Shown here: piece after piece, positions 6,400 to 37,700 of the stretch
Layout of the letters: every line of letters begins with the position of its first letter
Numbering within the stretch: position 1 is the stretch's first letter
Position numbers and translations under genes: made by a program
Notes under the pieces: model-generated
The model's input: the letters and a program-made list of their open reading frames with translations, nothing else
Told to the model about the DNA's origin: nothing
The model's database searches: none
From: a virus
Taxonomy: Duplodnaviria > Caudoviricetes
IMG/VR virus record: IMGVR_UViG_2896262711_000007
Location: 1-64,000 of that record
Reading direction: 5' to 3' (one strand)
Length of the DNA stretch: 64,000 nucleotides

Positions 6400-7209
6400 A
6401 TGCCTCTGGCAAGAAGGAAAGAAGTCCCAAAGCCTCCGAAGGCTCCGAAAGCGGCCGTCAAGAAGGCCTACGTCGAGGGCATCCTTCAGGACGACGGCAC
6501 GCTGATCTATCCGAACACCGTGCAGTTGGCGAAGCAGTTCGGGCCGACGCGCGAAACCATCTCCCGGTGGATCAACAACGAAGGCTGGGCGTCTGAGCGG
6601 GCGATCTACCAGGAGCGGTTGGCGGAAGCGGCCGAGGTCCGGAAGGCGAAGATGCTGCCGAACGCACCGGGCGTCGAAGCCACGGCGCGGGAACTGAAGG
6701 AAGACCTGAAGGCTCAAGGGGTGACGGTCGAGCCGGCGTCAGAAGCGGAGCCGGGCAGCGTGCCGGACTTCCGGATGCACGTCATCGCAGGGGAGCGGGC
6801 GAAATTCGACACGACCTGCCTGACGCTGGCCAAGGCGCTCCAGGCGGAGGTCGCTGTCACCATCACCCGGTCCCGCAAGAAGGTGCCGGACGTTGCCACG
6901 GGCACAGCGGTCGATCCGAGCCCGCTGGCACCGAAGGAGCTGCTGAGCCTCGCTGGCACGCTGGAACGCTCCCAGCGGATCGGCCGGCTGGCGCTGGGGC
7001 AGACCACCGAGAACCAGGGCCACAGCGCGCCTGATGGCAGCTCAATCAAGGTGGATGCGGAGCACACGGTCGATGTCAAGAAATCCGGCTACACCAACAT
7101 GGACCCGGCTGAGCTTGCGCGACTCTATGCTGAGACGGTTAGAACTGGCCCAGCGGACGGCAGCGGACAAGAAGCTCCAGGCGCTGACGCTGGCGCACAT
7201 AAGCAATAG
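6400..7209 (+). CDS. terS: Terminase small subunit (putative)
   Basis: GGAGG RBS; N-terminal HTH (LAKQFGPTRETISRW); QRIGRLALG; overlaps terL. Confidence 0.65.
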   Translation: MPLARRKEVPKPPKAPKAAVKKAYVEGILQDDGTLIYPNTVQLAKQFGPTRETISRWINNEGWASERAIYQERLAEAAEVRKAKMLPNAPGVEATARELKEDLKAQGVTVEPASEAEPGSVPDFRMHVIAGERAKFDTTCLTLAKALQAEVAVTITRSRKKVPDVATGTAVDPSPLAPKELLSLAGTLERSQRIGRLALGQTTENQGHSAPDGSSIKVDAEHTVDVKKSGYTNMDPAELARLYAETVRTGPADGSGQEAPGADAGAHKQ

Positions 7210-8695
7210 CTGCGTCGACTTCGTCAACGACTGGTGCTGGACCTACGATCCTCGCGAGATCGGGAAGGGCAGGTCGCCTTACATGCCCTTCGACCTGTTC
7301 CCGAAGCAGGCGGAGTTCCTGCTGTGGCTGGAGGAGCGGGTAGATAAAGGCGATGAATGGCTGGTGGAGAAGTGCCGAGACGCCGGCGCCTCCTACCTGA
7401 CCGTCGCCTTCGCCCTTCATCGGTGGCTGTTTCGGGACGCCTTCAAGGTGACATTCGGTTCCCGCGTCGAGGATGCCGTCGACAAGGCGGGCAACCCGGA
7501 CACGATCTTCGAGAAGCTGCGGATCATCCTTCGCCGCCTGCCGCTTTGGATGCTCCCCGCCGGCTTCGATGAGCGGCGGCACAGCCTCTACATGCGGCTC
7601 ATGAACCCGGCCAACGGCAGCGTGATCAGCGGTGAAGGCGGCCCGAACATGGGCCGTGGCGGTCGCTCTGCCATGTATGTGGTCGATGAGGGCGCGCACA
7701 TCGAGCGGGCTGAGAAGGTCGAAGCGGCTATCATCGGCAACGCCGATTGCCGCGGCTGGATCTCGTCGGCCAACGGCATGGGCAACCTGTTCTATCGGAA
7801 GCGGCAGAACGACGACGTCAAGGTCTTCACCTTCCGCCTGGAAGATGACCCCCGCAAGACGCCGGAATGGATCAGCCGGAAGAAGGCGACGACGGACCCG
7901 GTGACCTGGGCACAGGAATACGAGATCGATTACGGTGCGTCGGCGGAGGGCGTCTTCATTCCCGGCCCGTGGGTCAACGCCGCGGTCAAGCTCGGGAAGC
8001 TGCTGGGCGACCGCCTCAAGCCGTCAGCCGTCGGCGTGGCCGGCTTGGACGTCGGTGGCGGCGGCAGCGGCAAGACCGTGCTGGTGAAGCGCATGGGGCC
8101 ATTGGTGCTGATGCCGAAGGCCTGGAACTCCGCGGACAACATCACCACGACGCACGAGGCGATCGAGGATGCCCGCGCCGCCGGCTGCGGCATCATGAAC
8201 TACGATTCCATCGGCGTTGGCAACACCGTCACCAGCACTCTGATGCATGCCGGAAAGACGGGCCTCAAGGTCTACCCGATCAACGTCGGGAACCCGCCGA
8301 CGGACGCCGAATGGCCGGACGGTCGGACATCGAAGGAGATGTTCGCCAACCTCAAGGCCGAATTGTGGTGGATGGTCCGGTGCGCCTTCCAGCGCAGTTA
8401 CGAGCTCGTGCAGTTCCTGGAAGGGGATTCGAAGGGCGTCGAGCATCCTCTGCAGGATGTCATCGTTCTGCCGGAAGGCAGTAAAGAACTGACCGGCCAG
8501 CTCCCCGTCCCGAAGATGCTGCGCAACGGGAGGGGGCTGATCGCCGTGGAGTCCAAGGACTCGCTGAAGCGCCGAGGCATCCCTTCTCCCGACTACGCCG
8601 AAGCGCTGGTGCTGTCCTTCGCACCGGAGCCCGTCACCGCATTCGTCCTGCCTTCGATCACCCCGATCTGGGGAGGGCGCCCGACCGTCGGCTGA
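7073..8695 (+). CDS. terL: Terminase large subunit
   Basis: WTYDPR, LFPKQ, EKCRDAGAS, GRGGR, Walker B VVDEGA, nuclease GLDVGGG and SPDYAEAL; start uncertain (7034, 7073 or 7127). Confidence 0.92.
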   Translation: MSRNPATPTWTRLSLRDSMLRRLELAQRTAADKKLQALTLAHISNSCVDFVNDWCWTYDPREIGKGRSPYMPFDLFPKQAEFLLWLEERVDKGDEWLVEKCRDAGASYLTVAFALHRWLFRDAFKVTFGSRVEDAVDKAGNPDTIFEKLRIILRRLPLWMLPAGFDERRHSLYMRLMNPANGSVISGEGGPNMGRGGRSAMYVVDEGAHIERAEKVEAAIIGNADCRGWISSANGMGNLFYRKRQNDDVKVFTFRLEDDPRKTPEWISRKKATTDPVTWAQEYEIDYGASAEGVFIPGPWVNAAVKLGKLLGDRLKPSAVGVAGLDVGGGGSGKTVLVKRMGPLVLMPKAWNSADNITTTHEAIEDARAAGCGIMNYDSIGVGNTVTSTLMHAGKTGLKVYPINVGNPPTDAEWPDGRTSKEMFANLKAELWWMVRCAFQRSYELVQFLEGDSKGVEHPLQDVIVLPEGSKELTGQLPVPKMLRNGRGLIAVESKDSLKRRGIPSPDYAEALVLSFAPEPVTAFVLPSITPIWGGRPTVG

Positions 8696-8738: not shown

Positions 8739-10835
8739 ATGACCGACCAACCCGCTTCCGCCCCTGCCGTGATCGAGAAGGCCGGCAGCCAAGCCGGGCT
8801 GCTGACCGAAGTCGGGCGCGGCGGCCTTCGGCATTGGGGCGGCTATGTGTATGACGACGAGGACACGAGGCTCCAGGGCCTGCAAGCCGTCCGGCAGTAC
8901 CGCAAGATGACCAAGGACCCGACGGTCGCGGCGATGCTGTTCGCTCTGACGACGCTGCTCCGGTCGGTCAACTGGCGCGTCGAGGCGACCGACGACACCC
9001 AGGAGCATAAGGACGCCCGCGATTTTGCTGAGGGCGTTCTCTTCCAGGACATGGAGCACACCTGGAACGACTTCATAGCCGACGCGGCTTCGATGCTGCC
9101 CTATGGCTTCGCCCCCTTCGAGATGGTCTACAAGAAGCGATCCGGCACCGCCAAGGGCATGGACCCGCTCAAGGGCAGCATCTACAACGACGGCCGGATC
9201 GGCCTGAAGAAGATCGCGCTCCGCCGGCAGGACACCGTCCAGCGCTGGTGGTTCGACGATGAGACGGATGACCTGCTCGGCCTCTACCAGCTCGACCCTA
9301 TGCGAGGCCGGGAAATTCAGGTTCCGATGGATCGGCTGGTGCTGCTCCGGACGACGCCGAACAGCGGCAACCCGGAAGGCAAGTCGATTCTGGAAGCGGC
9401 CATCCGGTCCTACGAGCAGCTTCGCGTGTTCGAGCACGCCGAGGCTTCCATTGCGGTCCGCGCGTCCGGCATCGTGACGCTGGGTATTCATGTGGATGCC
9501 TATAACGACCCGACCAAACTGGCGGTCTGGGAAAGGCTGGCGCAGCAGATCTCCGAGGACCGGGCCGGCTACATCGTTCTCCCGACAATCCTCAACAAAG
9601 ATGGGGAAAAAGTCGACGCCTACACGGTCAGCTACACCGTCGCCGACGGCAGGCGCACGGGCGACTTCACCCCGATCATCGCCCGGAAGAAGCAGGAGAT
9701 CACCGCCGTCGCGCTGGCGGACTTCATTTTACTCGGCCACAATAACAAAGGAGCGCTCGCGCTCAGCGTCGACAAGACGGACCTTTTCAAAGAGGCCGGT
9801 ACTGCGATCCTGGGTAGCATCAGGGACGCTGTGAACCGGATCGTCCTGCCGCGCATATGGGCGGTGAACGGCCTGCCGCGCGACACGATGCCCGCGCTTC
9901 AGCATGACGATCTCGACAACGAGAACCTTCAGGTTCTGTCCGCCTTCCTGTCCGCGATGACCGCGGCCGGCATGCAGATGGACGACACGCTGGAAGATGC
10001 GCTGCGCACGAAGGCGAACCTGCCGCTCAAGCCGCGCACGGCGGAGACGGGGCCGACAGACCAGCCGCCGCCGGGATCGCCGAGCAAGACGCCTCCGGCT
10101 AAGCCAGGACAAGCAGGCGGGGGCGATGAAGGTGACGGGCTTGCCGACGCCGCGCCGGAAGCAAGCGAGACCAAGCCGCCGGCCAAACGCTCTTCCAAGC
10201 CAGGGCAGGTCGCCAAGGCTGCGCCCGAAGACATCGAGACGCTTGGCCGGATGTTGCCGGACGATCCGGCATATCGGGAAGCGCTGGCGGTGCTGGCCGG
10301 CGGGCCGATCCCCGGCGGCATCGACGCTGAAGAAGGAGGCGCGCCCGCGGCTGGGCCCGGCCCTTTTCATCAGGCGCTGACGAAGCATAACCGCTACCAT
10401 GACGCCCGCGGCCGGTTTACGTTCGGGCCAGAAAATGGCGGCGGGAACGGCGACAGCGTGAAGGACTTCCTCGAATCTGATGCGTCCGGGCTGGTCGTGG
10501 TTGCCACGCTACCAGCCGACATCCAGGCTCATCTGGGGGCCAAAACGACCCGCGTGTTCCTCTCCTCGGACACCAGGGACAGTCACAAGAAGCACAAGTG
10601 GACCAGCGAGGATTTCGCTCTTCTCCAAGATCTTCTCGATCACGGGGAGGTCCGAACCGACCGAGACAACCATGTTGTGGTCGCGCACATCGACGGGATC
10701 TGGCGCTGCGCAGTGATCAAGGTGACGGGAGATCGGAAGGAGGTCTACCTGTCGTCCTTCCACCGCATGCGAGCGAAGCAGGTCTACGACTTCCCCAACA
10801 AGGGTAGTCTGATCCGAGCGGGACGGAAGGTTTGA
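8739..10835 (+). CDS. Portal protein (DUF935/Mu gp29-like) with C-terminal PBECR-like nuclease domain
   Basis: Follows terL; YRKM..DPTVAAML, NPEGKSIL, ADFILLGH, GALALS.DK; Pro/Ala linker, then HNRYHDARGRF and a ~120-aa domain ending VIKVTGDRKEVYLSSFHR. Confidence 0.85.
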   Translation: MTDQPASAPAVIEKAGSQAGLLTEVGRGGLRHWGGYVYDDEDTRLQGLQAVRQYRKMTKDPTVAAMLFALTTLLRSVNWRVEATDDTQEHKDARDFAEGVLFQDMEHTWNDFIADAASMLPYGFAPFEMVYKKRSGTAKGMDPLKGSIYNDGRIGLKKIALRRQDTVQRWWFDDETDDLLGLYQLDPMRGREIQVPMDRLVLLRTTPNSGNPEGKSILEAAIRSYEQLRVFEHAEASIAVRASGIVTLGIHVDAYNDPTKLAVWERLAQQISEDRAGYIVLPTILNKDGEKVDAYTVSYTVADGRRTGDFTPIIARKKQEITAVALADFILLGHNNKGALALSVDKTDLFKEAGTAILGSIRDAVNRIVLPRIWAVNGLPRDTMPALQHDDLDNENLQVLSAFLSAMTAAGMQMDDTLEDALRTKANLPLKPRTAETGPTDQPPPGSPSKTPPAKPGQAGGGDEGDGLADAAPEASETKPPAKRSSKPGQVAKAAPEDIETLGRMLPDDPAYREALAVLAGGPIPGGIDAEEGGAPAAGPGPFHQALTKHNRYHDARGRFTFGPENGGGNGDSVKDFLESDASGLVVVATLPADIQAHLGAKTTRVFLSSDTRDSHKKHKWTSEDFALLQDLLDHGEVRTDRDNHVVVAHIDGIWRCAVIKVTGDRKEVYLSSFHRMRAKQVYDFPNKGSLIRAGRKV

Positions 10836-10912
10836 GGGCGTTGGCCTGGGAGCGAAGCACCCCAGCGGACCCGAAGGCTACCCGGCATCGCAGCAATTTT
10901 CACCAACGCCCT
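10835..10912 (+). ncRNA. Candidate structured RNA directly downstream of the PBECR domain
   Basis: Perfect 10-bp closing stem AGGGCGTTGG (10835-44)/CCAACGCCCT (10903-12) enclosing CTGGG/CCCAG and CGG/CCG hairpins; no U-tract. Confidence 0.45.
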
Positions 10913-11178
10913 GTCGAGAATAATAGCGCCTGCGCTCCCTGAATTCAAGCCAAGGCGTCAGCATTCCCCACCGCCTGTCAAGCAGATTCCGGAGGGTAGA
11001 TGTTCCCACATCAGGATGGCGCCGAATCGGATCAGGGCGGCAACCGACCCACTAAATGTAGTTTTAGGAATGGGGTGTCGGAACGGGATCTTGGTCAACG
11101 CCTTGAGGAATCTGGTTCACAGAATTTCCATAAGGGCGCTTATGTGTTTTTGAGCGGATTCCATACCCGCTACCCTGA

Positions 11179-11457
11179 ATGAAGTCCGCGCGGCCATTCC
11201 AGCAGAGCGACGCCAAGACGACGAAATCGAGCAAACCGATTCGCCGCTCGAACTGCCTCGCCGTCGCTCTGGCAGCGTGGTGGCGCGATCCGCAAGGCGT
11301 CCGCATCAGCGTCACGCGTTCCGACTTCGGCGGCCCGCACGTCTATTGGACGGACCGCTCCGGCCGGTCCTGGCACTGGCAGGCCGCTGACAAGGCCCTG
11401 CCGCTCAGGCGGACGCTCCGGTTCGAAGGCCGGATCGCCCGGTACCTGCCGCGATAG
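11179..11457 (+). CDS. Small phage hypothetical protein
   Basis: 92-aa ORF with SNCL..A...WW and GPHVYW motifs; ends just before the MTase RBS. Confidence 0.45.
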   Translation: MKSARPFQQSDAKTTKSSKPIRRSNCLAVALAAWWRDPQGVRISVTRSDFGGPHVYWTDRSGRSWHWQAADKALPLRRTLRFEGRIARYLPR

Positions 11458-11499
11458 TCGAGTAGCCACCCCCCTCGCACCAGCCCTTCTGAGGCAGCC

Positions 11500-12723
11500 A
11501 TGTACAACGTCTTCACCGGCGACGTCCTGGACGTCCTGCCGACGATCCCTGATGCCTCCGTCGACGCGGTGCTGTGCGACCCGCCTTACGGGTTGAGCGA
11601 TCATCGGCACCGGGACGTGATCGCTTGCCTGACAGCGTGGCTGGCAGGGCAGCCGTATCGGCCGCGCAAGCGGGGTTTCATGGGCCGCGGCTGGGACGGC
11701 TGGGTGCCCGGTCCCGAGTGCTGGAGCGAAGTCCTCCGCGCTCTGAGGCCCGGCGGTCACGCGCTAGTGTTTGCTGGCACGCGGTCCATGGACTTGATGG
11801 TAGTGGCATTGCGGTTGGCGGGCTTTGAAATCCGCGAGTGCATCCGGTCGCTGAATGGGTCGGACCATTATCCAGCCTGGGTCTATGGCGGCGGACTGGC
11901 GAAGCATGAGGCGCAGATCAGGCCGGGATGGGAGCCTGTCATCATCGCACGCAAGCCGCTGGACGGTACGTTGGCGGGCAACATCGCCAAACACGGCACC
12001 GGAGGGCTGAACATCGAAGGGTGCCGCATCGCCCGCGGCGGCGATAAGGGTCAGCACCCGATCAACGTCATTCACGACGGGTCGGACGAAGTGGCAGCCG
12101 AGTTCGCCGCGCTGCCTGACACCAGCAGGCCTTGCGAGAAGCGTTCGAAGGGTGAGGATGACCGTAGGCCGGGAGGCACAGGGGTTGTCTATTCTGGTGG
12201 CTGGGGAGAGCGCCGCCGCAACCAAATCGAGAGCCATTATGATGACGCCGGGACCGCCGCCCGCTTCTTCTACGCCGCGAAGGCATCGGGACGTGATCGC
12301 TGGCTCTACTGCCGCATCTGCGGCACTGCCCATCCCAAGCGGGAGATCGGCGCACACGAGCACGGCCGGGATGACGCCGAACACATCGTCATGCACCCCA
12401 CTGTCAAGCCCACCAGCCTGACGGAATACCTCGCGCGCCTGGTCATGCCCATTGGCGTCAACCGTCCGCGCCGCATCTTGGTGCCCTTCGCCGGCAGCGG
12501 GTCGGAGATGGTGGGCGCCCTGCGCGCCGGCTGGGAGGAAGTGATCGGGATCGAGATGGACCCGGACTATGTAGCCATCGCCGCCGGACGCTGCGAGGTG
12601 GCAAAGGTGGAGCCGCTGCCGCTGAAGAAGGCCGGTAAGAGCAAACGCAAGGCAGACACCACGCCAGCCACGGCCCCTGAGACGCCCGTCGCCCCTGACT
12701 TGTTCTCGACGGCTGCCGAGTAA
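11500..12723 (+). CDS. DNA N6-adenine/N4-cytosine methyltransferase (beta class)
   Basis: CDPPY, HPTVKP, PFAGSGS, GIEMD; GAGG RBS. Confidence 0.92.
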   Translation: MYNVFTGDVLDVLPTIPDASVDAVLCDPPYGLSDHRHRDVIACLTAWLAGQPYRPRKRGFMGRGWDGWVPGPECWSEVLRALRPGGHALVFAGTRSMDLMVVALRLAGFEIRECIRSLNGSDHYPAWVYGGGLAKHEAQIRPGWEPVIIARKPLDGTLAGNIAKHGTGGLNIEGCRIARGGDKGQHPINVIHDGSDEVAAEFAALPDTSRPCEKRSKGEDDRRPGGTGVVYSGGWGERRRNQIESHYDDAGTAARFFYAAKASGRDRWLYCRICGTAHPKREIGAHEHGRDDAEHIVMHPTVKPTSLTEYLARLVMPIGVNRPRRILVPFAGSGSEMVGALRAGWEEVIGIEMDPDYVAIAAGRCEVAKVEPLPLKKAGKSKRKADTTPATAPETPVAPDLFSTAAE

Positions 12724-12728
12724 CGACA

Positions 12729-13832
12729 ATGCCCCTGCCCCACGACTACCTCAACCGCATCGCCGCCCGGCTTGGCCCCGGCATGCGAGAGGCGTTCCTA
12801 CGGTCGGTCGAAGGCCTCCGCGCCGGCGCCGATCCGGAGCGCATCGCCGCGCTGCTGGAAGCCAGCGATGTCGATGGGGTGATCGAGGTGCTGGGGCTGC
12901 GCGACCCGGCATGGCTGAACCGCTTCCGGGTGGCGGTGGCAGAGGTTTTCGTCGCAGGCGGCAAGGAGACCCACGCCGGCCTCGCCCAGGTCATTGCTGA
13001 CGCCATCGCCGAAGACGCCCTCCCCGCGGCGGCGGAGAACCGGATCGCGGTGGCCTTCGGCGTCCGCAACCTGCCGGCGGAGAAGGCGCTGCGGGATTAC
13101 GACCTGTCCCTGATCCGCGAGATCGACGACAACACGGTGGAAGGCATCCGCGCCGCTCTGACCCGCGGGATGGAGACCGGTCGGAACCCGCGTCAGGTGG
13201 CGCTGGACCTCTGCGGCCGCATCGGCGCTGACGGTCTGCGAGAAGGAGGCATCCTCGCGCTGACCGCCATCCAGGCCGGCCATGTCGAGAACGCCCGCAC
13301 CGAGCTGGCTTCCGCCGATCCGGCGATGCTCCGCCGCTTCCTCGGGCGTGAACTCCGGGACCGTCGGTATGACGCCGCGGTGCTGCGCGCCATCAACGCC
13401 GGTACCGCGCTCCCCGACGCGGTGCAGGAGAAGGTTGGCAACGCCTACGCCAACGCCTTCCTCCGGTACCGGGCGGAGACGGTGGCGCGAACGGAAGCAC
13501 TGCGGGCGGCATCGGTCGGGCAGGAAGCCGCGCTGCGGAACGCCGTCGCCACCGGTGCGCTGGAGGCAGGAAGCATCCGGTCCTTCTGGATCGACACGGA
13601 CGATGACCGCACCAGGCCGGCGCACCGGGAAATCCCCGGCATGAACCCGGACGGCCGGGTGCTGGGGGAGCCCTTCGACACGCCGCTTGGGCCGATGCTC
13701 TACCCGCGCGACCCGGCCGGCACCGCGGAGAACGTCATAGGGTGCCGGTGCTGGCGACAGGTCAGGATCGGCGGCAACGGGAACAAGTGGCTCGGCATGC
13801 TGGACGAGCCGCGGCCGGATCCGCCGGAGTAA
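12729..13832 (+). CDS. Minor head morphogenesis protein (MuF/gp7 family)
   Basis: RAETVARTE, W..T.DDRTRPAH, YPRDP...NVIGCRC. Confidence 0.9.
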   Translation: MPLPHDYLNRIAARLGPGMREAFLRSVEGLRAGADPERIAALLEASDVDGVIEVLGLRDPAWLNRFRVAVAEVFVAGGKETHAGLAQVIADAIAEDALPAAAENRIAVAFGVRNLPAEKALRDYDLSLIREIDDNTVEGIRAALTRGMETGRNPRQVALDLCGRIGADGLREGGILALTAIQAGHVENARTELASADPAMLRRFLGRELRDRRYDAAVLRAINAGTALPDAVQEKVGNAYANAFLRYRAETVARTEALRAASVGQEAALRNAVATGALEAGSIRSFWIDTDDDRTRPAHREIPGMNPDGRVLGEPFDTPLGPMLYPRDPAGTAENVIGCRCWRQVRIGGNGNKWLGMLDEPRPDPPE

Positions 13833-21416: not shown

Positions 21417-22018
21417 TGAAGGAAGCCATTGGCCAGTTCGGTGGGAGGGTGCGCAAGCCCCTCCGCACTGGCATCGGTGTTCTCTGCATCGGCACGGAGA
21501 TCACCGCCGAACAGGCCGCGAAATGGCCCACGCAGAACCGCATGGCCATGGCCCGGACGGAGCATGTGTTCTGGTATCCGGCACCCTTCCAGAGCGAAGC
21601 CCCCACCGAAGGGACCGGCCCGGCGGACAGCGGCGCGCAACCCGAAACGGCGACGGCAACGGTCGCGCTGGGGGCGGGCATGGAGCCCGCGGTGACCAGC
21701 GTTACCTCCGCCGAGAAGGCGGATGGTGACACCTCCCCCACCGCGCCAACGGCTTCGTCGACCACGGCAACCAAAGGAGCCGGACCGGCGGGCACTGCAG
21801 AGCAGACGGAGCCGCCTCCGAGCGGTCAGCCTGCCTCACCACCTGCTGGCCCGGGCCTGCCGACCATCGACCCCGAAACGGCCGAGCGTGACGAGCTGCG
21901 CGCCTGGCTGATCAAGGCCGGTGACGAGCCGGCCCCGGCGCTCGGAACCGACAAGCTCCGTCAGCGGGTCCGCGACAAGCTCGCGCTCTCCTCCGGCGGC
22001 AGCAACCAGGAGGGATAA
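21413..22018 (+). CDS. Hypothetical virion-associated protein (low-complexity linker, short helical C-terminal domain)
   Basis: ATGA overlap with the capsid stop; C-terminal ERDELRAWL...LGTDKLRQRV. Confidence 0.65.
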   Translation: MMKEAIGQFGGRVRKPLRTGIGVLCIGTEITAEQAAKWPTQNRMAMARTEHVFWYPAPFQSEAPTEGTGPADSGAQPETATATVALGAGMEPAVTSVTSAEKADGDTSPTAPTASSTTATKGAGPAGTAEQTEPPPSGQPASPPAGPGLPTIDPETAERDELRAWLIKAGDEPAPALGTDKLRQRVRDKLALSSGGSNQEG

Positions 22019-28787: not shown

Positions 28788-31700
28788 ATGCCCGATGCAG
28801 TTCTTTCCGTTGGCATTGAAACTTCCGAGACTGAACGTGGTTCCAGGGTCTTCCGCCGGGAAATGGCGGATATGGCCAACAGCGCCCGCGACGGCATGAG
28901 CGCGGTCGACCGCTACAACACCTCGCTGGGCGCCGGCGGCTCTGCTACCGACCTGTTCGCTAAGCAGACCGCCACCATGGCTGCCGGCATCAAGGCGCTG
29001 GAGGGCAACCTCGCAACGAGCACACGCGCCGTCAATGACCTGAGCCTGAAATTCGACGTCGTCCGGCAGGCGGCCAAGAATGCCGTCACCTCCCTTCAGG
29101 ACTTCGGACGCACCAAGTTCACCGGCGATGTCACGGCGCAGATGAACCGTCTCGCGGAAGACATGACCCGCGCCATGGATGCCGGCGGCAAGGGTGCTGT
29201 CTCCGCGGCCCGCGCTGCCCAGAAAGAGATCCTCACGCTCGCCCGCCAGCAAGCCGACGAACAGCTGGCCGCGGTCCGGGAGGCGGCACAGAAGCGCATT
29301 GCCGGCGCCCAAGAGGAATACGAGCGCATCAGGGAATTGCACAAGGGCGCGAAGACGGAGATCGCCGCGCAGGAACGCGCTGCAGCCCAGCAGGCGCTGG
29401 AGCAGGCCAAGGCATCCGCTGCATCCGACATCGCCACCACGAAGGCGGCGAACTCCGCCACCCTGAATGAACTTAAGGCTCGGACGAACGAGATCATCGC
29501 CCTGAAACAGCGGGAGTCCGTCGTCCAGAGCGAATATGAGCGAGGCCTGGGAGCGGTTGCCAAAGCGGAGCAGCAGCTCGACGGGGCGCTGACCCGGCTG
29601 ATCGCTACCGAGAAGGCGCATGCTACCCAGGCCGCCGCCAATTCGCAGGACAATGAGCGTCTGCTGGCCGTCGTACGCCGCGGCACGGAGGTTCGGAAAG
29701 CCAGTACGGCCGCGATCACCGCAGAGACCGCGGCGCTCCGTTCTCACGCCGACGCCACCCAGCAGAGCGGCCGCTACTCGGTGAGCAATGGCGGGCTGCT
29801 GGCGGCCAACGTGCCCGCGCCGGCATCCGTCAAACCCGTGCCAGCCTCGCAGTCCGCTACGGACCTGGAGCAGGAGAAGGTTGATGTCATAGCCCTGACC
29901 GATTCCCTCGATAAGCTGATCCTCCGTCACGATTACGAGTCCGCGGCCATCGCCCGGCGCAATGAAGCGCTGGACACCCTGCATGCTGCCCGCAAGGCCG
30001 GCATCATCGATGACGAAGACGAATATGACCGGCTGCGCAAACTGATCACCGGAGATGCTGCCAAGGCCGATGCTCTCTCCGCGCTGAAGAACCAGTACAG
30101 CGGCGTCTCGGAGGCCCAGCGCCGCTACACGGCCGAAGTCGAGCGCGCCACCAAGATCCTGGATGCCGCCGGCGCGTCCGATGAAGACCGCGCCGCGATC
30201 CTGCATGAAGTGGCGCAGGCCTACGATCCGACCATTGCCGCCCAGAAGAAGGCCATGGAGGATGCAGAGCGCCTGGCGGCGGAAAACGACCGCCTTGCCG
30301 CCTCCTACACCTCGCTTATGGGCAGCATCGATCCGGCCATCCGCCGGCAGGCCGCCTATGAGCAGGCACTGGCCCAGGTCGTCGCCTACCACACCAGCAT
30401 CGGCAGCAGCACCGAAGCCATGGCCGCCGACATGGACCGCGTGAAGAACGCCATGAGTCCCGCTGCGATCGAGGCGCAGAAGGAGGCCGATGCGGTTACC
30501 AAGCTTCTCGACCGCCTGGAGCCGACGGCAAAGAAGTCCCGCGAACTTGCTGCCGATCAGGAACTGCTCCGCAAGGCGATGGCTGCCGAAGGTGCCGATG
30601 TCGCCAAGCTGACCGCGGCGATGGAAAAGCTGAACGCTGAACAGGACCGGCTCGGCAAAAAGATGTCGAAGGGCGAGGCCCGCATGAACCAGCAGGTTCT
30701 GGGATCCGTCGGCGTCAACACCGTCCAGTCCCTGGCGTCCGGCATCCCGCTCGAAACCGTCGCGATGACGCAGGGCACCCAACTTCTGACCCTGCTCCAG
30801 GGCGGCAGCGTGGCATTGCTCGGCTATGCCGCGGCGGCAGTGGCGACGATTGGCCCCGTGGTGGCACTGGGCATCGCCGTCAAGAACTACACCGGCTCGC
30901 TGCGGGAACTGGACCGCGTCAACCGCCTAACCGGCAACAGCTCGGGCATGGCGACCCAGCAGATTGTCGCCCAGGCTGACGCGGCTGCGGCTGCCGCAGG
31001 CATCTCGCGCAGCGCCGCCCGTGATCTGGAAACCCAGTACGCCGGAACCGGTCGCATCGGCGGGCAGATGCTGGGTGAGGTCACGAAAGCCACCAAGGAC
31101 TGGGCCACCGCTACCAGCCAGGATATGGATTCAGCGAGCAAGGATCTCGCTGGCATGTTCACCGATCCGGCTCGCGCCGCGGAGGAACTGACCAAGAAGT
31201 ACGGGTTCTTTTCTGACGCGCAGTTGCAGGTCATCAAGAACTACCAGGCACAGGGCAATCTGGAACAGGCGCAGGCGCGGCTGCTCGATGGGATCAGCTC
31301 CCGAACGAAAGGAGCGGCTGAGAATGTGGTTTGGTATGCCAAGGCATGGGAAAAAGTCTCAAAGGTCGTTTCTGATGCCTCAGACGCTTCAGCCCGTCTC
31401 TTCGTCGACCAGGAGAGCGCTGCCGAAAAAGCAAGGCGCCTGACAAATGAACTGACGATCCAGCGCACCAGCCGTGGCGGCATCGTAAATGATCGCACCA
31501 CCGGCCCCTTGCCGCAAATGGTGACACGGATTACCGGCGGTCGTGGTGGTGGCGTCCGAACGCTTGAAGGCTCAAATGACGCCTGGAAGCGTCTCGAACT
31601 CATGAACGCTGAGGAGATGAATCGGCGTCAACTCCAGATGTCGAGCACGCAGAAGAACGCGGCAGATGCGAGGCGTCTCGAAGCACAGCTGATGGACTTC

Positions 31701-34700
31701 GTGCGCGCCACGGATCCCAGCATCAACGCCGCACAGAGCTTCGCTAACGCCGAAAAGCTGGTCAATGAAGCCGTCGCGAAGAATCCTGCACTCCAAGATC
31801 AGGCCACCCGTGCGCTCGGCATCTACAAGCAGCAGTTGATCGAGGCGATTGACCCGGCGAAGGTCTTCGCAATCGAAATGGAGCGGCAGGCCCGCGTCAT
31901 GGAAGCGGCGGCCGGCCGGGCGCGCGACTTTGAGCAGCAGCGGCAAGCTGTGCTCCAGAAGCGGGGTGCTCAGCCCGGCGACAGCCTCACGGCCGCAGAG
32001 ACCGCGGACATCAACCAGGGTCTGGACCGCAAGTATGCGGCCGAGGCGACTGACCGGCACCGCACGGCAGAGGAGGCAATCACCGACGCCCGCACTCTCG
32101 CGGCCGCCATCGCTTCGCTGTCGCAACCTGCCATCATCGCCGCACAGGCTCAGGCTGCTTACAATAAGGTGATCCGCGAGACGACGGACGCCACCCACCC
32201 GCTTGGGGACGTTCAGGCAGCTCAGCAGGCGCAGCAGGATGCCCTCACGAAGAGCACCATCGAATGGTCGGCGCAGGTCGATGCGTCGGTCGCCACCGCG
32301 AGCCTCGCGGTAGCCGCGTCCCAGCGGTTGGCGGCTGCCCAGGCCAAGGGCGGCGACATCGCCATGGCCCAGGCGCAGGCACAGAACGTCTATGCGGAGA
32401 ACATTGCCCGCGGTGTCGATCCGACCCGCGCGCTCGCCCTGGCGCAGGCCGACCTGAGCAAATCGGTGGCGACGTTGGCCGGGCAGCAGGCGGCCTGGAA
32501 CCGCGACATGCTGGAGCAGATCGATGCCGCTCACCGTCTCGCGTTGGCGGAGTCCGTCTCCAGTGCGGCAGTGGCGGAAGCAGCGATCCAGAACAAGACC
32601 AGGGCGCAGGCGCTGAAGGAAGGCGTCGGCCTGGAGTCCGACCGCGCGCAGGCCATCGAGGCTGCGACCCGCGCCTTGGAGGCGCAAAATGCCGTCGCGC
32701 GCGTCAACAATTCGATCCGGCAGGGTAACCAGGATCTGAAGGTCGCCCGCGCCGAATATGACCTGCTGGGCGCCACGAACGCCGAGCGGGAGCGCTCGGT
32801 CGCCGTCCTCAAGGCCACGCTTGAGGTCCAGAACTCCGCGGACTGGCAGGCCGTGCCGCAGGCGACCCGCGATGCCTGGATCGCACAGGCCGGCGCGGTC
32901 GCGGAATATAAATCCCGCGTCGCCGATGCGACCGAGACCAGCCGCGACTTTGCCAACGTCATCACCAAGGGCTTCGAGGATGCCCTGCTGGGCGGAGAGA
33001 AACTGTCGAGCGTGTTCAAGGCGCTGGCCAAGGATATCGAACGCGTGTTCCTGCGCAGCTTTGTCACGAAGCCGATGGAGGGCTGGATCCAGGGCACGAT
33101 GACGAAGCTGCTGTCGCCGACGCCGGCCAACGACAACATGGTGAAGGCGGTCAACGACAACGATCCAGGTGGTTACCGGGCTGCGTTCGAGCGTCTGGCC
33201 GGCAACGCCGGAGTCGGCTCGCTCGGTACCCGCGGCAATCCGATGATCGTGCAGTTCGCCGACGGCAACGCGGCGCTGAACCTGAGCACGGCAACCAGTG
33301 GCGGCCCTATGCCGGTCGCGATCAAGGACGGCGGGCAGGTCGTCGACATGCTTCGCTCGGAAGCCCGCGCCCAGGGCGTGCCTGAGGATGTCGTTCTCGC
33401 CATCGCCAAGATCGAAAGCGGCTTCAAGCAGTATCGCGACGATGGCCGGGTACTGACCTCGGATGCAGGCGCCATGGGCGTTATGCAATTGATGCCCGGT
33501 ACCGCGAAATGGCTGGGCGTCGATGCCACCGACACCCAGCAGAACATCCAGGGAGGCGTCAAATTCCTGGCGATGCTGGGAAGGCAATTCGGCGGGAACT
33601 GGACCCTCACGGCCGGCGCATACAATGCCGGGCCAACCCGCATGACGGAACACCTGCGGGACGGTCGGGCATTGCCCGCCGAAGCCGTCAAATACATGGG
33701 AGACTTCGGGGCCACCATCAAATCGGCCAACACGGACGTTGCGTCTCTCACCGCCCGCGTCACAGGAGCAACTCGCGCTACCGAAGGCGTCACCGCTGCC
33801 CAGGAGTCCGCGCTCCAGGCGCAGTTCGATGCGATCGACGCTCAGAAGTCGTCCACCAGCACGGTCCAAACCCTCAACGATTCCCAGCAGACGCTGGTGG
33901 ACTCAGTGCTGGGCATCTCCCACGCCAACGAAAACGCCAGCCAAAGCGCAGTCTCTGTCGCCAACGATCTGACCTCTGCCGCCGTCGGCGCCGTGACCTT
34001 CGGTGATGCGGCTGCGACGGGGGCAGACAGCTTCCTGGGCAGTATCAAGAAGCTGGTCAGCGGTGCGTCCGACTTCTTCGGCGACATCCTCGGTATCGGG
34101 CAATCCAGCCAGCAGAAGGTCATCAAGAACTCTGACGGGAGCACCAGCTTCGCGCCGGCTACCAAGGGTGTCGGTGGCTCGTGGCTGTCCTCTCCCGTGT
34201 TTGGGCAAAGCGAATCCGCCCGGCCAGATTCCAACTTCGTCGGCCCGATGCCTGGCAGGGCTGCTGAAGGGATCGGCGGGTGGAATCCGAGCTGGGGACA
34301 GGTGATCCAGGGAATCGGCGGCATTGCCTCGGGTGCCGCGATGGCAACGCAGAAAGGGGCCAGCGTTGGGCAGCAGATCGGCGGGGGCCTGACTGCGGCC
34401 GGCGGTATCGCCGCGATGATCCCCGGTGGCCAGATCGTCGGCGGCGTCATGATGGCGGCCGGCGCGTTGCTGTCGGCCGTTACCGGGGCGAAGGATCGAG
34501 GTGAGAAGTACAGCATCAGCCACATCACCTTGGGCGCCAACGGCAAGTATGCACTCGGCAGTTACGCCGAAGACAATGGGGGCGATCCGACAAGGTTTAA
34601 CAGCGACGCCACCAAAGTCGCCAAGGGGCTGAACGACATCATCGCCCGGCTGAACCTGACTGCGACTGGCAAGGACAGCTACATCGATAGCAAGAACAAG

Positions 34701-37700
34701 TCGGCTGAACAGGCCGCGCTTGATCTGCTGAAGGGGATGCGATCCGGTGTCCCTGAGATCGCATATGCGATTGCGCATGAAAGCGCCGTAATCCTTGAAG
34801 ATATGCTGTCGCACCTGGAGTTCGCGAACAGCTTCAACAACCAAGTCCAGTCGCTGCGCTCGTCCATCTCCGACCTCTTCTCGCAGTTCCAAACGGGGGT
34901 CGAAGCGGGTAACACACTCGGCCGCACCCTGCTGGATTTCGTCAACAACGCCCAGACGGTCTTTGCGGTCAGTTCCGGCGCCAAGCTGCCCGGCTTCGCG
35001 ACGGGCACGCTCTCGGCTCCTTCCGGGTGGGCCATCGTCGGTGAGGAAGGCCCGGAGCTGGTCCGCCTCTCTGGCGGCGAACGCATCTGGAACGCGCGGG
35101 AATCCGCCCAGATGTTGGCCGCGCAGGGTGTCGGAGCGGACACGCAACTGGTGCATGTCCGGTCCGATGAACTGGCCTGGATGGACCGCATGCTGGGCGG
35201 TCGCCGCACTAACCCAACAACCGGCCTCCCGATGTATCTGGAAGGCGACACGGGCGGGGTTGGCGACACCGGCGGTCATAGCGGCGGCGGCCACAATAGC
35301 AACGGCTCCGGGCCGACGGGCGGCGAGAATGCCGCCACTGGCTCGGCCTACGGCAGCACGGCTGACCGGGACGCGGCCTATGGGGGTGGCTGGGGCACCT
35401 CGTCCGGCGGTGGCGGTGGCGTGATCGACACCATCAGCGGGTGGGTTTCGGCCGTCACCGGCTGGATGTCGGAGCTTGCCGGCTGGCAGGCCGACACTGC
35501 CGAAAACACCCAGGCGCAGACGCAGACCATGGCCGCTGTTGCAGGCCTCGGCCCGACCGCCGTTGCTGCCGCCCTGTCGGCTGCCGCCCAGGTCGCCGGC
35601 ACCGGCCTGACCGGCATGCTGGAGGCCCTGACCGGCGAAAAGGGCACCGCCGCCGCAGTCAGCCATGACTACGGTGACCAGACCAGCGCCGTGTCGGGCA
35701 CCGCTGGCACCATCGGCGAGCGGGCCGTGGCCGCCAACGGTGGGCGGGGGTCCTTCGGAGCGTGGCAGGGCGCCTCCGCGACGGAGATCGACAGCACGTT
35801 GAAGGCGCTCGCCGATGCGCTGAAGGCTGATCCGACCGGCAAGCTGACGACCGAAATGGTCGGGGCTTCTCGTGTCGGCGATCCGGGCAGCGGCGGGATC
35901 AGTGTGCAGCAACTGGCCGACAACCCGTCGTGGATCATGCGTAATGAGGTGGGCGACCCCTCGTTGGCACTGAAGGAACTGGACACGGCGGCCCAGCAGC
36001 TTCTCGCCGCCACCGGTGCGATTCCGGAGGTGTTGCAGCGCGCGCTGGACGGAGCCAACGCAACGGCGGCTTCGTTCGGCATTCCGACCGCGACCGCCGC
36101 CCGGCAGGTTCAGGAGGAGGCGGAGCGGCAGAAGGCTGGGAAGCTTGAGGAACAGTTTAACGCCGTGGGGTTGGTCCGGAGCCGGGTGTCGGAGTTGAAC
36201 GACATCGTCACCTCGCTCGGCAACAACACCTTCAACGCGGTCGGCAAGGACTTCGACGCCCTGGCCGGCGACATGCGGAAAGCAGCCGACGCCTATATCG
36301 CCGCCGGGCAGGCGGTGCCCGACGGCCTCTATGGGGCCATGAAGCAGATGGAGGCCCTGGGCGCGGTCAAGAAGCGCCTGATGGATGAGGTATCGGGCGT
36401 CACCGTCGAGACATCACCCGAACAGAAGAAGGTCGAGCAACTCCGCGGCAAGTGGTCGAACACGGCCACGGATCTCGTTAAAGCCTTCGCGTCGGTGGGT
36501 ATCGTCGGCGACGAACTCGCTGCGAAGCTCAACGAAGGTTTCGCCAACGGACTGAAGAAGGAACAGGGCGATTACAGCGATACCCTGAATGTAGCTTTCC
36601 GGAAATCGAAGGGAGAGGAGGGATACGACAGCGCGGCCACGCTCATCAAATCATACAAGACCGCTGTCGATGATGTGAACGTGCTTTGGCCGGAAGGTGC
36701 CGCCCGCGCCGGACAGATGGCCAAGGTCACCGGCACGCTGACCAACGGCATGTCCGGCTTGGTCAAATCGGGCAGCATCACCAGCACCAGCTTGCAGGAG
36801 ATCATCTCCAACTTCTCGGACATGCCGGAGGTGGTCAGCGCGGCGAGCACAGCACTCCAGAAGCTGAACGATGCCACCGCAGAAGCGGTCAAGACGTTCA
36901 ATTCGGGCGTCGATTCCCGGATGTACGCCGCCTTGGGCAACAGTCGTGGGTCCGGGCTGATCACTCTTGATGAGCAGCAGCGCCAAGAACTGCTGAAGGC
37001 GAAAGAGGATGGGCGTGATACGAGCCAGCTGATTCAGGTCCAGGCGGCGGAGCGGGCCGCAAAAGCCTTCGAGCTGGCTCAGCAGGATGTGTTGGGTTCC
37101 TACGACCAGCAGATCAGCGCCCAGCAGGACCTGATCACGAACCTCCAGGAGGGAGCAGTCGCCGCGGCGAATGTCGCCCGGCAGTTCCGTCAGGCCTACG
37201 ACAGCCTGGCGCTCAACGACAACAGCCCGCTCTCGGCTTACGAAAAGCTGGTCGAATCCCGCCGGCAGTTCGAAGCCGCTTACACCACCGCAACCAGCAG
37301 CACCGCCACCGACACGGAGAAGACGGCGGCGCAGCAACTGCTTCAGCAACTCGGTCCGACCGTGGTCCAGTTGGCGAACGCATATTTCGCCAACAGCGAC
37401 AGAACGGACTACGACCGGGTCCGGACCGTGTTCGATCAACTTGGGACGGTCCCGACCAACGCCGATCTCGGAACGCCTGAGAAGCAGCTTCAGACGGCTC
37501 AGGACGCCTTGAAGGAGTTGCAGCGGCAGCGTGCCGAGGCTGCCCGGATCGGAGAGCGTCAGTATGGCGCGATGACCGGCCTGAAGGATGTCATGGACCA
37601 GAGCTATGCCGTCTGGCAGGCGGCCCTCGGCCCGCTCAAGGCACTCACCGGTACCAACGACAACACCCCACGCTACAGCGCGTCCGCAGCGGTGCAGACG

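Follow-up and report, generated by a model that had tools for sequence, protein, structure and literature searches.

The window analysed here is the whole stretch of 64,000 nucleotides (nt), positions 1 to 64,000, of the Caudoviricetes record IMGVR_UViG_2896262711_000007. The source record is a 79,783-base provirus, rated 100% complete, and its nearest relatives among public genomes are Azospirillum. The subject is a pair of convergent genes: a portal gene whose product carries a C-terminal nuclease-like domain, and, on the opposite strand, a predicted small RNA gene of ~78 nt. The RNA and the domain are linked across many loci, and the RNA may be the antidote of the domain. The features of the two genes are as follows.

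8739..10835, + strand: portal gene, 698 amino acids, with a C-terminal nuclease extension (Pfam Portal_Mu, phrog_113).
10047..10382, + strand: Pro/Ala/Gly-rich linker of ~110 amino acids, from the portal core to the nuclease module (from the translation).
10383..10418, + strand: motif KHNRYHDARGRF (from the translation).
10452..10832, + strand: PBECR3-like, predicted BECR-fold RNase domain, 127 amino acids, with conserved His (KKH) and Lys/Thr (IKVT).
10835..10912, - strand: predicted small RNA gene, ~78 nt, read from 10912 to 10835 (covariance model R1, 95.3 bits).
10912-10902 with 10845-10835, - strand: closing stem P1.
10891-10888 with 10855-10852, - strand: pseudoknot helix Pb.
10884-10866, - strand: hairpin Pc with a C(UUCG)G loop.
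10865-10861 with 10850-10846, - strand: hairpin Pa.
10920..10948, - strand: sigma70-type promoter, with the -35 box TTGAAT at 10948-10943, a 17-nt spacer and the -10 box TATTAT at 10925-10920.

An original prediction, made from the letters of the window, described a portal core followed by a low-complexity linker of ~120 amino acids, a motif and a compact nuclease domain. This layout is borne out. Portal_Mu (PF06074) matches residues 53-416 of the protein at 85.4 bits (cut-off, 23.9; 6e-24), and the PHROGs match of the open reading frame (ORF) is phrog_113, portal, at 1.9e-55. GC and AT-skew peak in the linker, for which no family match is found.

The same prediction noticed a 78-nt element overlapping the stop codon, with a perfect 10-bp closing stem. 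The inverted repeat is indeed present (10835-10844 / 10903-10912), and it overlaps the TGA stop by that codon's final base. The window has 37 positions with a perfect 10-bp inverted repeat (loops of 3-100 nt), compared with 13.7 +/- 4.8 in Markov-simulated sequences. Single-sequence folding gives minimum free energy z values of 0.08 (+ strand) and -1.16 (- strand), which are not above chance. The case for a genuine RNA is built on comparative covariation, and not on single-sequence folding.

Five Azospirillum loci were found by a protein-based genome scan. In four of the five, conservation is higher in the ~80 nt past the nuclease stop than in the 3' coding sequence, and the closing stem shows compensatory changes. 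The first clue to this conserved DNA was a peptide. At L005:4980-5480, the nuclease ORF (P0005) lacks the usual stop and reads through the entire RNA gene, which yields a tail with the string GPEGYPAS. A coding extension or frameshift product was rejected as an explanation of this string, since its frame relative to the nuclease ORF varies among loci and it has no start codon. The shifting frame indicates that the peptide-like conservation is a by-product of nucleotide conservation.

An invariant 20-nt core is present once in the window. Used as an RNA-only query, it retrieves 8 viral contigs and 31 metagenome contigs, and the family occurs in Azospirillum genomes, IMG/VR viral contigs and metagenome contigs. 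Covariance model R1 aligned 22 full-length distinct sequences, which are the window and 21 related ones. Covariation downstream of homologous domains had been suggested as a check of the original prediction, and it is found: 95.5% of the cells pair, and both sides change in 19 of the 27 pairs. A covariation score of 0.548 is obtained, compared with 0.160 in shuffles (0 of 500 reach the observed value) and at most 0.103 with slid partners. RNAalifold gives the same nested helices as the R1 structure. In a structure-blind MAFFT alignment of 12 sequences, 96.3% of the cells are paired and the covariation score is 0.374 versus 0.154 (0 of 500). These comparative data indicate that the element is a genuine structured RNA.

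In the conserved fold, the loop of Pa pairs with the strand 5' of Pc, and this helix, Pb, makes a pseudoknot. The conserved fold comprises the closing stem, two hairpins and this helix, and it differs from the single-sequence one. The cloverleaf-like shape once suggested does not hold. ARAGORN detects no tRNA at the element and finds only a tRNA-Arg at 21665-21750, and the consensus is two hairpins and a pseudoknot within one closing stem. In Rfam 15, positions 10000-12000 of the window match only three unrelated eukaryotic models (small nucleolar RNA and microRNA) at E<=10, all away from the element, and six other loci show nothing at the element at E<=1. The hairpin as a mimic of a host stable RNA was also considered. 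It is unsupported in one complete Azospirillum genome, where the core with <=3 mismatches is seen only in the two RNA genes and at two 3-mismatch sites, and a control pattern gives 1 match.

The RNA is assigned to the minus strand because of its promoter, the balance of G.U and A.C pairs, its loop sequence and the T-runs after P1. The promoter in the window stops 7 nt ahead of P1, and a promoter scan lists the same site. The pattern TTG(nnn)/16-18 nt/TAnnnT ends 4-7 nt before P1 in 15 of the 22 sequences, and in the opposite orientation in none of them. In 200 shuffles the mean number of such patterns is 0.115 and the maximum is 2. Read on the minus strand, the helices contain 34 G.U cells versus 3 A.C cells, or 13 versus 3 without the invariant pair. 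This invariant G.U pair is changed to C-G in the second copy at L011. The invariant loop reads C(UUCG)G on the minus strand. T-runs directly follow P1 in L022, L027, L031, L036 and L060.

These data bear on the possibility that the element acts on the plus strand in the portal mRNA, as a terminating, stabilising or decoy structure in the 3' untranslated region (UTR). The element begins at the stop codon with a perfect closing stem, and an AT-rich hairpin with a T-run is present ~215 nt further on the plus strand. However, a plus-strand reading would turn the invariant inner-stem pair into an A.C mismatch in 21 of the 22 sequences, and the element has no U-tract on the plus strand. Together with the promoter on the opposite strand, the excess of G.U cells and the minus-strand T-runs of several members, this makes a plus-strand function very improbable. 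By these sequence signals, the element is not a 3' UTR but a small RNA gene of its own, which is encoded on the minus strand and converges with the portal-nuclease gene. The small RNA is presumably expressed.

At L009:86-173, a copy of the RNA is located at the very start of a predicted provirus, and its promoter region is replaced. A 420-amino-acid ORF at L009:1475-2737, 1.3 kb from the copy, was taken for a putative tyrosine integrase from its C-terminal sequence. The RNA gene of L009 may be, or be beside, an integration site. A further reading is that the element works at the level of DNA, for instance in attachment, in recombination or as a palindrome bound by a protein, rather than as an RNA, and it fits this idea that contigs L004 and L005 end soon after the element. 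This reading is hardly credible. Compensatory changes keep four helices including the pseudoknot, and the G.U asymmetry and the positioned promoter are signatures of transcribed RNA.

The C-terminal domain of the portal protein has numerous relatives. phmmer against 1.84 billion representatives gives 173 at E<=1e-3, and the domain is C-terminal in nearly all of the matches listed (150 of 173). Among 97 aligned relatives, 41 contain Phage_Mu_F, 9 match PF18812 PBECR3 (E<=0.01), and 5 match LPD13. Three PBECR3 matches were inspected; they span model positions 17-114 of 115 and score 17.5-23.9 bits, below the gathering threshold of 30 bits. The window domain does not reach this threshold either. 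Alone, it has no Pfam match even at E<=10 and nothing significant in PHROGs, and phmmer against PDB sequences returns only chance-level IF-1 matches. tblastn of the domain against phage records gives one match, the MuF protein of a Helicobacter prophage (L001). No related locus was found in a search of viral contigs with the domain or with the whole portal. The dN/dS ratio (nonsynonymous to synonymous substitution rates) of the domain is 0.10-0.29, with dS saturated.

The AlphaFold2 model, built from 48 sequences, has a predicted confidence (pLDDT) of 94.5 and shows helices and then four strands. In Foldseek, the top match is the RNase toxin BrnT (E 0.031, probability 0.99). A structure search independent of Foldseek finds BrnT (Z 6.5), CdiA-CT(NC101) (6.4), a Salmonella toxin-antitoxin (TA) toxin (6.4) and colicin D (5.4), with RelE, YoeB, colicin E5, YafQ, ParE and HigB in lower ranks. 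The top matches have Z 6.5-4.2 over 72-83 aligned residues, at 4-14% sequence identity, and the list is almost purely of BECR/RelE-type toxins. The model thus supports, without proving, a BECR fold with an N-terminal helix and then a sheet of 4-5 strands.

The His of KKH (residue 82 of the 161-amino-acid query) and the Thr of IKVT (residue 126) are invariant in alignments A3 and A4. In the 48-sequence alignment A2, conservation is at least 90% for this His and for the Lys before it. Section 19 of Iyer, Burroughs, Anand, de Souza and Aravind (2017, PMC5512222) places the PBECR active site at a His within or close to the N-terminal helix, together with a Thr/Ser in a late strand, and the domain satisfies this pattern. 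The two conserved residues suggest an active enzyme. The PBECR-like nature of the domain, as first proposed, is supported by the PBECR3 matches of its relatives, the predicted fold, the structural matches and the His/Thr pattern. It can be described as a PBECR-type, BECR-fold RNase-like domain.

For the linkage of RNA and nuclease, every RNA-bearing locus was translated in six frames and searched with a hidden Markov model of the domain. There are 32 RNA matches, and the testable set consists of the 28 for which the DNA on the relevant side extends for at least 200 nt. Duplicate rows are present among the matches (L043=L002, L017=L004, L044=L027, L045=L036). For 19 of these 28 copies, the opposite strand carries a nuclease ORF that either overlaps the RNA match or stops <= 8 nt away. 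Two more are second tandem copies 126 nt away (L011 and L050), and one is at 401 nt (L029). The search of public DNA with the RNA alone recovered the nuclease domain. A relaxed core pattern adds one extra member with a variant core, L060, 2 nt from a convergent nuclease ORF of 603 amino acids. A search with alignment A11 returns only the already-known contig L011.

The carriers of the RNA-linked nuclease are different: the portal in the window and L011, MuF in L027, and short ORFs elsewhere. The identity of the nuclease among RNA-linked loci is as low as 18-38%. In L002 and L003-L005, which are Azospirillum chromosomes, the domain and the RNA are retained together despite broken or absent neighbouring prophage genes. 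L003-L005 are flanked by ordinary-looking chromosomal ORFs. L006 has a truncated nuclease and lacks the RNA. No conserved protein-coding neighbour of the nuclease is detected by tblastn among the loci collected by then. These facts support a tight linkage of the RNA and the nuclease domain across many loci.

Tandem copies deserve a separate description. At L011:3828-4042 and L050:1374-1588, a single portal-type nuclease ORF is followed by two RNA genes in tandem. Both L011 copies have a promoter of their own, and the proximal copy has a variant core with the compensatory change from G.U to C-G. Such tandem copies recall arrays of immunity genes.

Another group of loci contains a second, short type of RNA-like element. 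In these short-type loci (L007, L008, L010, L012, L013, L023, L034, L035, L037, L038, L040 and L042; e.g., L007:1611-1760), the identical 20-nt UUCG hairpin heads a leader of ~150 nt, in sense, between scaffold-like and capsid-like genes. The hairpin is followed by a covarying hairpin and then by GGUAGCC...GGUCC-like modules. The short-type elements have no Rfam match. No nuclease is seen in the DNA examined of these loci. The entire records of three of them likewise contain none, though these records are fragments, 36-74% complete.

In the window, the portal-nuclease gene is surrounded by a block of head genes on the plus strand. Its neighbours are as follows.

7034-8695, + strand: large terminase (phrog_2).
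After the portal gene, within the head block: non-coding stretch of ~340 nt.
10975-10990 / 11107-11122: imperfect inverted repeat, 16 nt.
11000-11182, + strand: small ORF without a supported Pfam or PHROG family.
11129..11151, + strand: AT-rich hairpin (CATAAG / CTTATG), then a T-run (sequence inspection).
11179-11457, + strand: small ORF, 92 amino acids, without a supported Pfam or PHROG family.
11500-12723, + strand: DNA methylase.
12729-13832, + strand: MuF protein with no extra domain.

Two further statements of the original prediction agree with this map, namely that MuF is bare and that no convincing immunity ORF directly follows the nuclease. tblastn of the two small ORFs and the methylase against the other loci collected by then gives no match. 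The ORFs at 11000-11182 and 11179-11457 were rejected as immunity genes, as they have no homologue in those loci and no supported family. The hairpin at 11129..11151 is a possible plus-strand terminator closing the cassette. Blocks resembling it are seen by eye in an alignment of L003, L004 and L005, and in reverse complement in L051. The hairpin is not called by a terminator scan, and its resemblance to the other loci is undetected by blastn.

Copies of the motif KHNRYHDARGRF head successive modules in P0025 (5 copies), P0054 (4 copies) and P0092 (8 copies). Its form is K-x-N-x-Y/H-H-D-x-x-G-R-F, and the proteins with the repeats are giant multi-domain phage proteins. From its placement, it looks like a module-boundary signal of polyvalent phage proteins, either a processing site or a linker signal.

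Two distant features of the window are also recorded. The phage-encoded tRNA-Arg found by ARAGORN at 21665-21750 (- strand) has the anticodon TCT. Colicin D, a structural relative of the nuclease domain, is a tRNase that targets tRNA-Arg, and a tie between this phage tRNA and the nuclease domain is pure speculation. A very long ORF of 3218 amino acids (28788-38444, + strand) contains a TMP_2 tape-measure domain at residues 627-817 and an SLT transglycosylase domain at residues 1523-1625.

It is considered somewhat probable that the locus is a cassette of a toxin domain and an RNA antidote, with the RNA acting as the antidote of the RNase domain. This reading is ranked first because of the fixed spacing, the convergent orientation, the independence from the carrier and the joint retention. 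The first gene would provide a BECR-fold RNase domain on the portal C-terminus via the long linker, probably carried in the virion. The second would be the convergent ~78-nt RNA gene, with its 3' end abutting the nuclease stop codon. Made from its own sigma70-type promoter, the RNA could be expressed in the lysogen. In a producing or lysogenic cell, it would be the antitoxin or immunity factor that stops the nuclease from doing harm, and if a related phage injected this nuclease, the RNA could neutralise that as well. The RNase activity, the toxicity and the antidote function are presumed.

Two mechanisms could be considered. In the favoured one, the folded RNA would act like a type III antitoxin, binding to the domain and serving as its inhibitor or pseudo-substrate. 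In the other, as in type I systems whose genes overlap convergently at their 3' ends, the RNA would pair with the 3' UTR of the nuclease mRNA, to which it is complementary. The nuclease mRNA would run across the RNA gene, and the convergent layout means that an antisense mechanism fits too. Three features favour direct inhibition: the 20-nt hairpin is invariant, the RNA has a pseudoknot, and some copies have no nuclease beside them. A wider proposal is that immunity to a virion-delivered BECR RNase is conferred by the structured RNA, that the cassette hops among portal, MuF and solo forms, that orphan and tandem copies protect lysogens against the nucleases that related phages inject, and that the UUCG hairpin is the recognition module. 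Taken as a whole, it falls slightly short of being probable.

Several observations weigh against an antidote. Six of the 28 testable RNA copies have no nuclease nearby (L016, L022, L025, L030, L031 and L051), and the distant MuF-nuclease locus L001 has no R1 match. The hairpin of the short-type loci implies that it may recognise a partner other than the nuclease. The RNA in the window has no U-tract, as the original prediction stated. Expression was looked up in Logan contigs, among which one is from a true RNA library and the remaining runs are probably DNA. That contig, from a soil metatranscriptome, spans 11312-11462 with one difference; it lies in the region of the ORF 11179-11457, outside the small RNA gene, and is the only RNA-library contig on the region. 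As for the RNA fold, two of five covariation measures are not significant on the MAFFT alignment (25 and 354 of 500 shuffles reach the observed values), and the invariance of the 20-nt core is partly an artefact, the core having served as the search key. All structural Z-scores of the domain are below 8. Finally, if an antisense RNA and a terminator both lie within a late operon, between portal and MuF, read-through would be needed, which is unexplained.

The copies without a nuclease could also be understood if the RNA were a phage or prophage regulatory RNA or a protein-binding module, serving for instance head-gene expression, lysogeny or a host target. Its adjacency to the nuclease would then be due to a recombination-prone cargo slot behind portal or MuF. 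The 20-nt hairpin in capsid-gene leaders without the nuclease (L007, L008, L010, L012, L013, L037, L040 and L042) is in line with this, as is the different cargo of the portal-MuF slot, which is ORF92 and the methylase in the window and other cargo in L011. It is nonetheless unlikely. A mere hot spot would not keep such spacing and orientation: in 19 of the 28 copies, the stop codon overlaps the RNA end or is no more than 8 nt from it. The linkage extends over carriers of all three kinds (portal, MuF and short ORFs) and to nuclease identities as low as 18-38%, and the pair is kept where the neighbouring prophage genes are broken or absent.

Tight linkage, a conserved tertiary fold and tandem copies in L011 and L050 would also fit if the RNA were a substrate, cofactor or packaging partner of the domain, either processed by it or loaded into the capsid with portal or MuF as a ribonucleoprotein. 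RNA binding is proposed for inactive PBECR domains in section 19 of Iyer et al. (PMC5512222). The conserved His and Thr suggest an active enzyme instead, and the nuclease-less copies are easier to explain as immunity genes. Such a role is decidedly unlikely.

The antidote reading can be compared with known systems. In type III TA systems (ToxIN, CptIN and TenpIN), a structured, pseudoknotted RNA neutralises a protein endoRNase, and it is encoded as a repeat array upstream on the same strand. The proposed pairing of an endoRNase with a pseudoknotted RNA is similar, and tandem copies are present in L011 and L050. Unlike in type III, the RNA here is downstream on the opposite strand, with its own promoter and as a single copy rather than a repeat array, and the toxin fold is BECR/RelE-like, not ToxN-like. 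The type III-like arrangement of the original prediction is thus not retained, as position and strand both differ and the repeat array is missing. Of its cis-encoded RNA partner, the structured RNA linked to the nuclease stands, but the RNA is not part of the nuclease transcript, being a minus-strand gene with its own promoter.

Type I systems with convergent 3' overlap are represented by txpA/ratA and bsrG/SR4 of Bacillus prophages, in which the toxin is usually a small hydrophobic membrane peptide; RalR/RalA is another type I comparison. The prophage setting is shared, and so is a convergent RNA gene complementary to the 3' end of the toxin mRNA (here a 1-nt overlap at the stop codon). In contrast, the candidate toxin is a soluble enzyme domain of ~127 amino acids in a structural protein of 698 amino acids, and copies of the RNA without a neighbouring toxin exist. 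The conserved tertiary fold and the invariant hairpin are unneeded for simple antisense pairing.

Among protein families, the PBECR domains on portal and MuF proteins (PMC5512222, section 19) are the closest. Shared features are a C-terminal BECR domain on a virion protein, the His and Thr pattern, and relatives on MuF and as solo ORFs, and the best Pfam matches of the homologues are PBECR3. A difference is that no Pfam PBECR model matches the window protein and that its relatives do not reach the gathering score. In that paper, section 19 and passages on immunity and portal name neither a linked RNA nor an immunity factor. The MuF polymorphic toxins, in the part of Jamet et al. (2017, PMC5576092) used here, also have a variable C-terminal toxin on a head protein of temperate phages, and the cassette moves between carriers. 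Here, however, the conserved neighbour is an RNA gene and not an immunity protein, and the carrier is the portal. The solved RNase toxins that the predicted domain resembles most in structure (BrnT, RelE, colicin D and CdiA-CT) have different partners as well: most of their entry titles name a protein antitoxin, immunity protein or inhibitor in complex.

The fusion of portal and PBECR was already described in section 19 of Iyer et al. (PMC5512222), so the fusion in the window is a known architecture. The RNA family is absent from Rfam 15. A literature search found no description of it; supplementary material was not covered, and an earlier mention is possible. RNA antitoxins are known in types I and III, and an RNA partner for a BECR domain on virion proteins would be a new variant.

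Toxin-like domains, PBECR and others, are widespread on phage head proteins, and how the producing cell tolerates them is mostly unexplained. To our knowledge, the immunity to polymorphic toxins known so far is proteinaceous. The pairing of RNA and nuclease is a concrete and cheaply testable hypothesis. Should the antidote idea fail, the family would still be a well-supported new structured RNA of phages and prophages. If the antidote idea is true, the polymorphic or polyvalent toxin cassettes of phages can use RNA instead of protein for immunity. There would then be an RNA antidote for a BECR/RelE-fold nuclease, a new family to enter in RNA databases, and possibly an RNA-based superinfection immunity.

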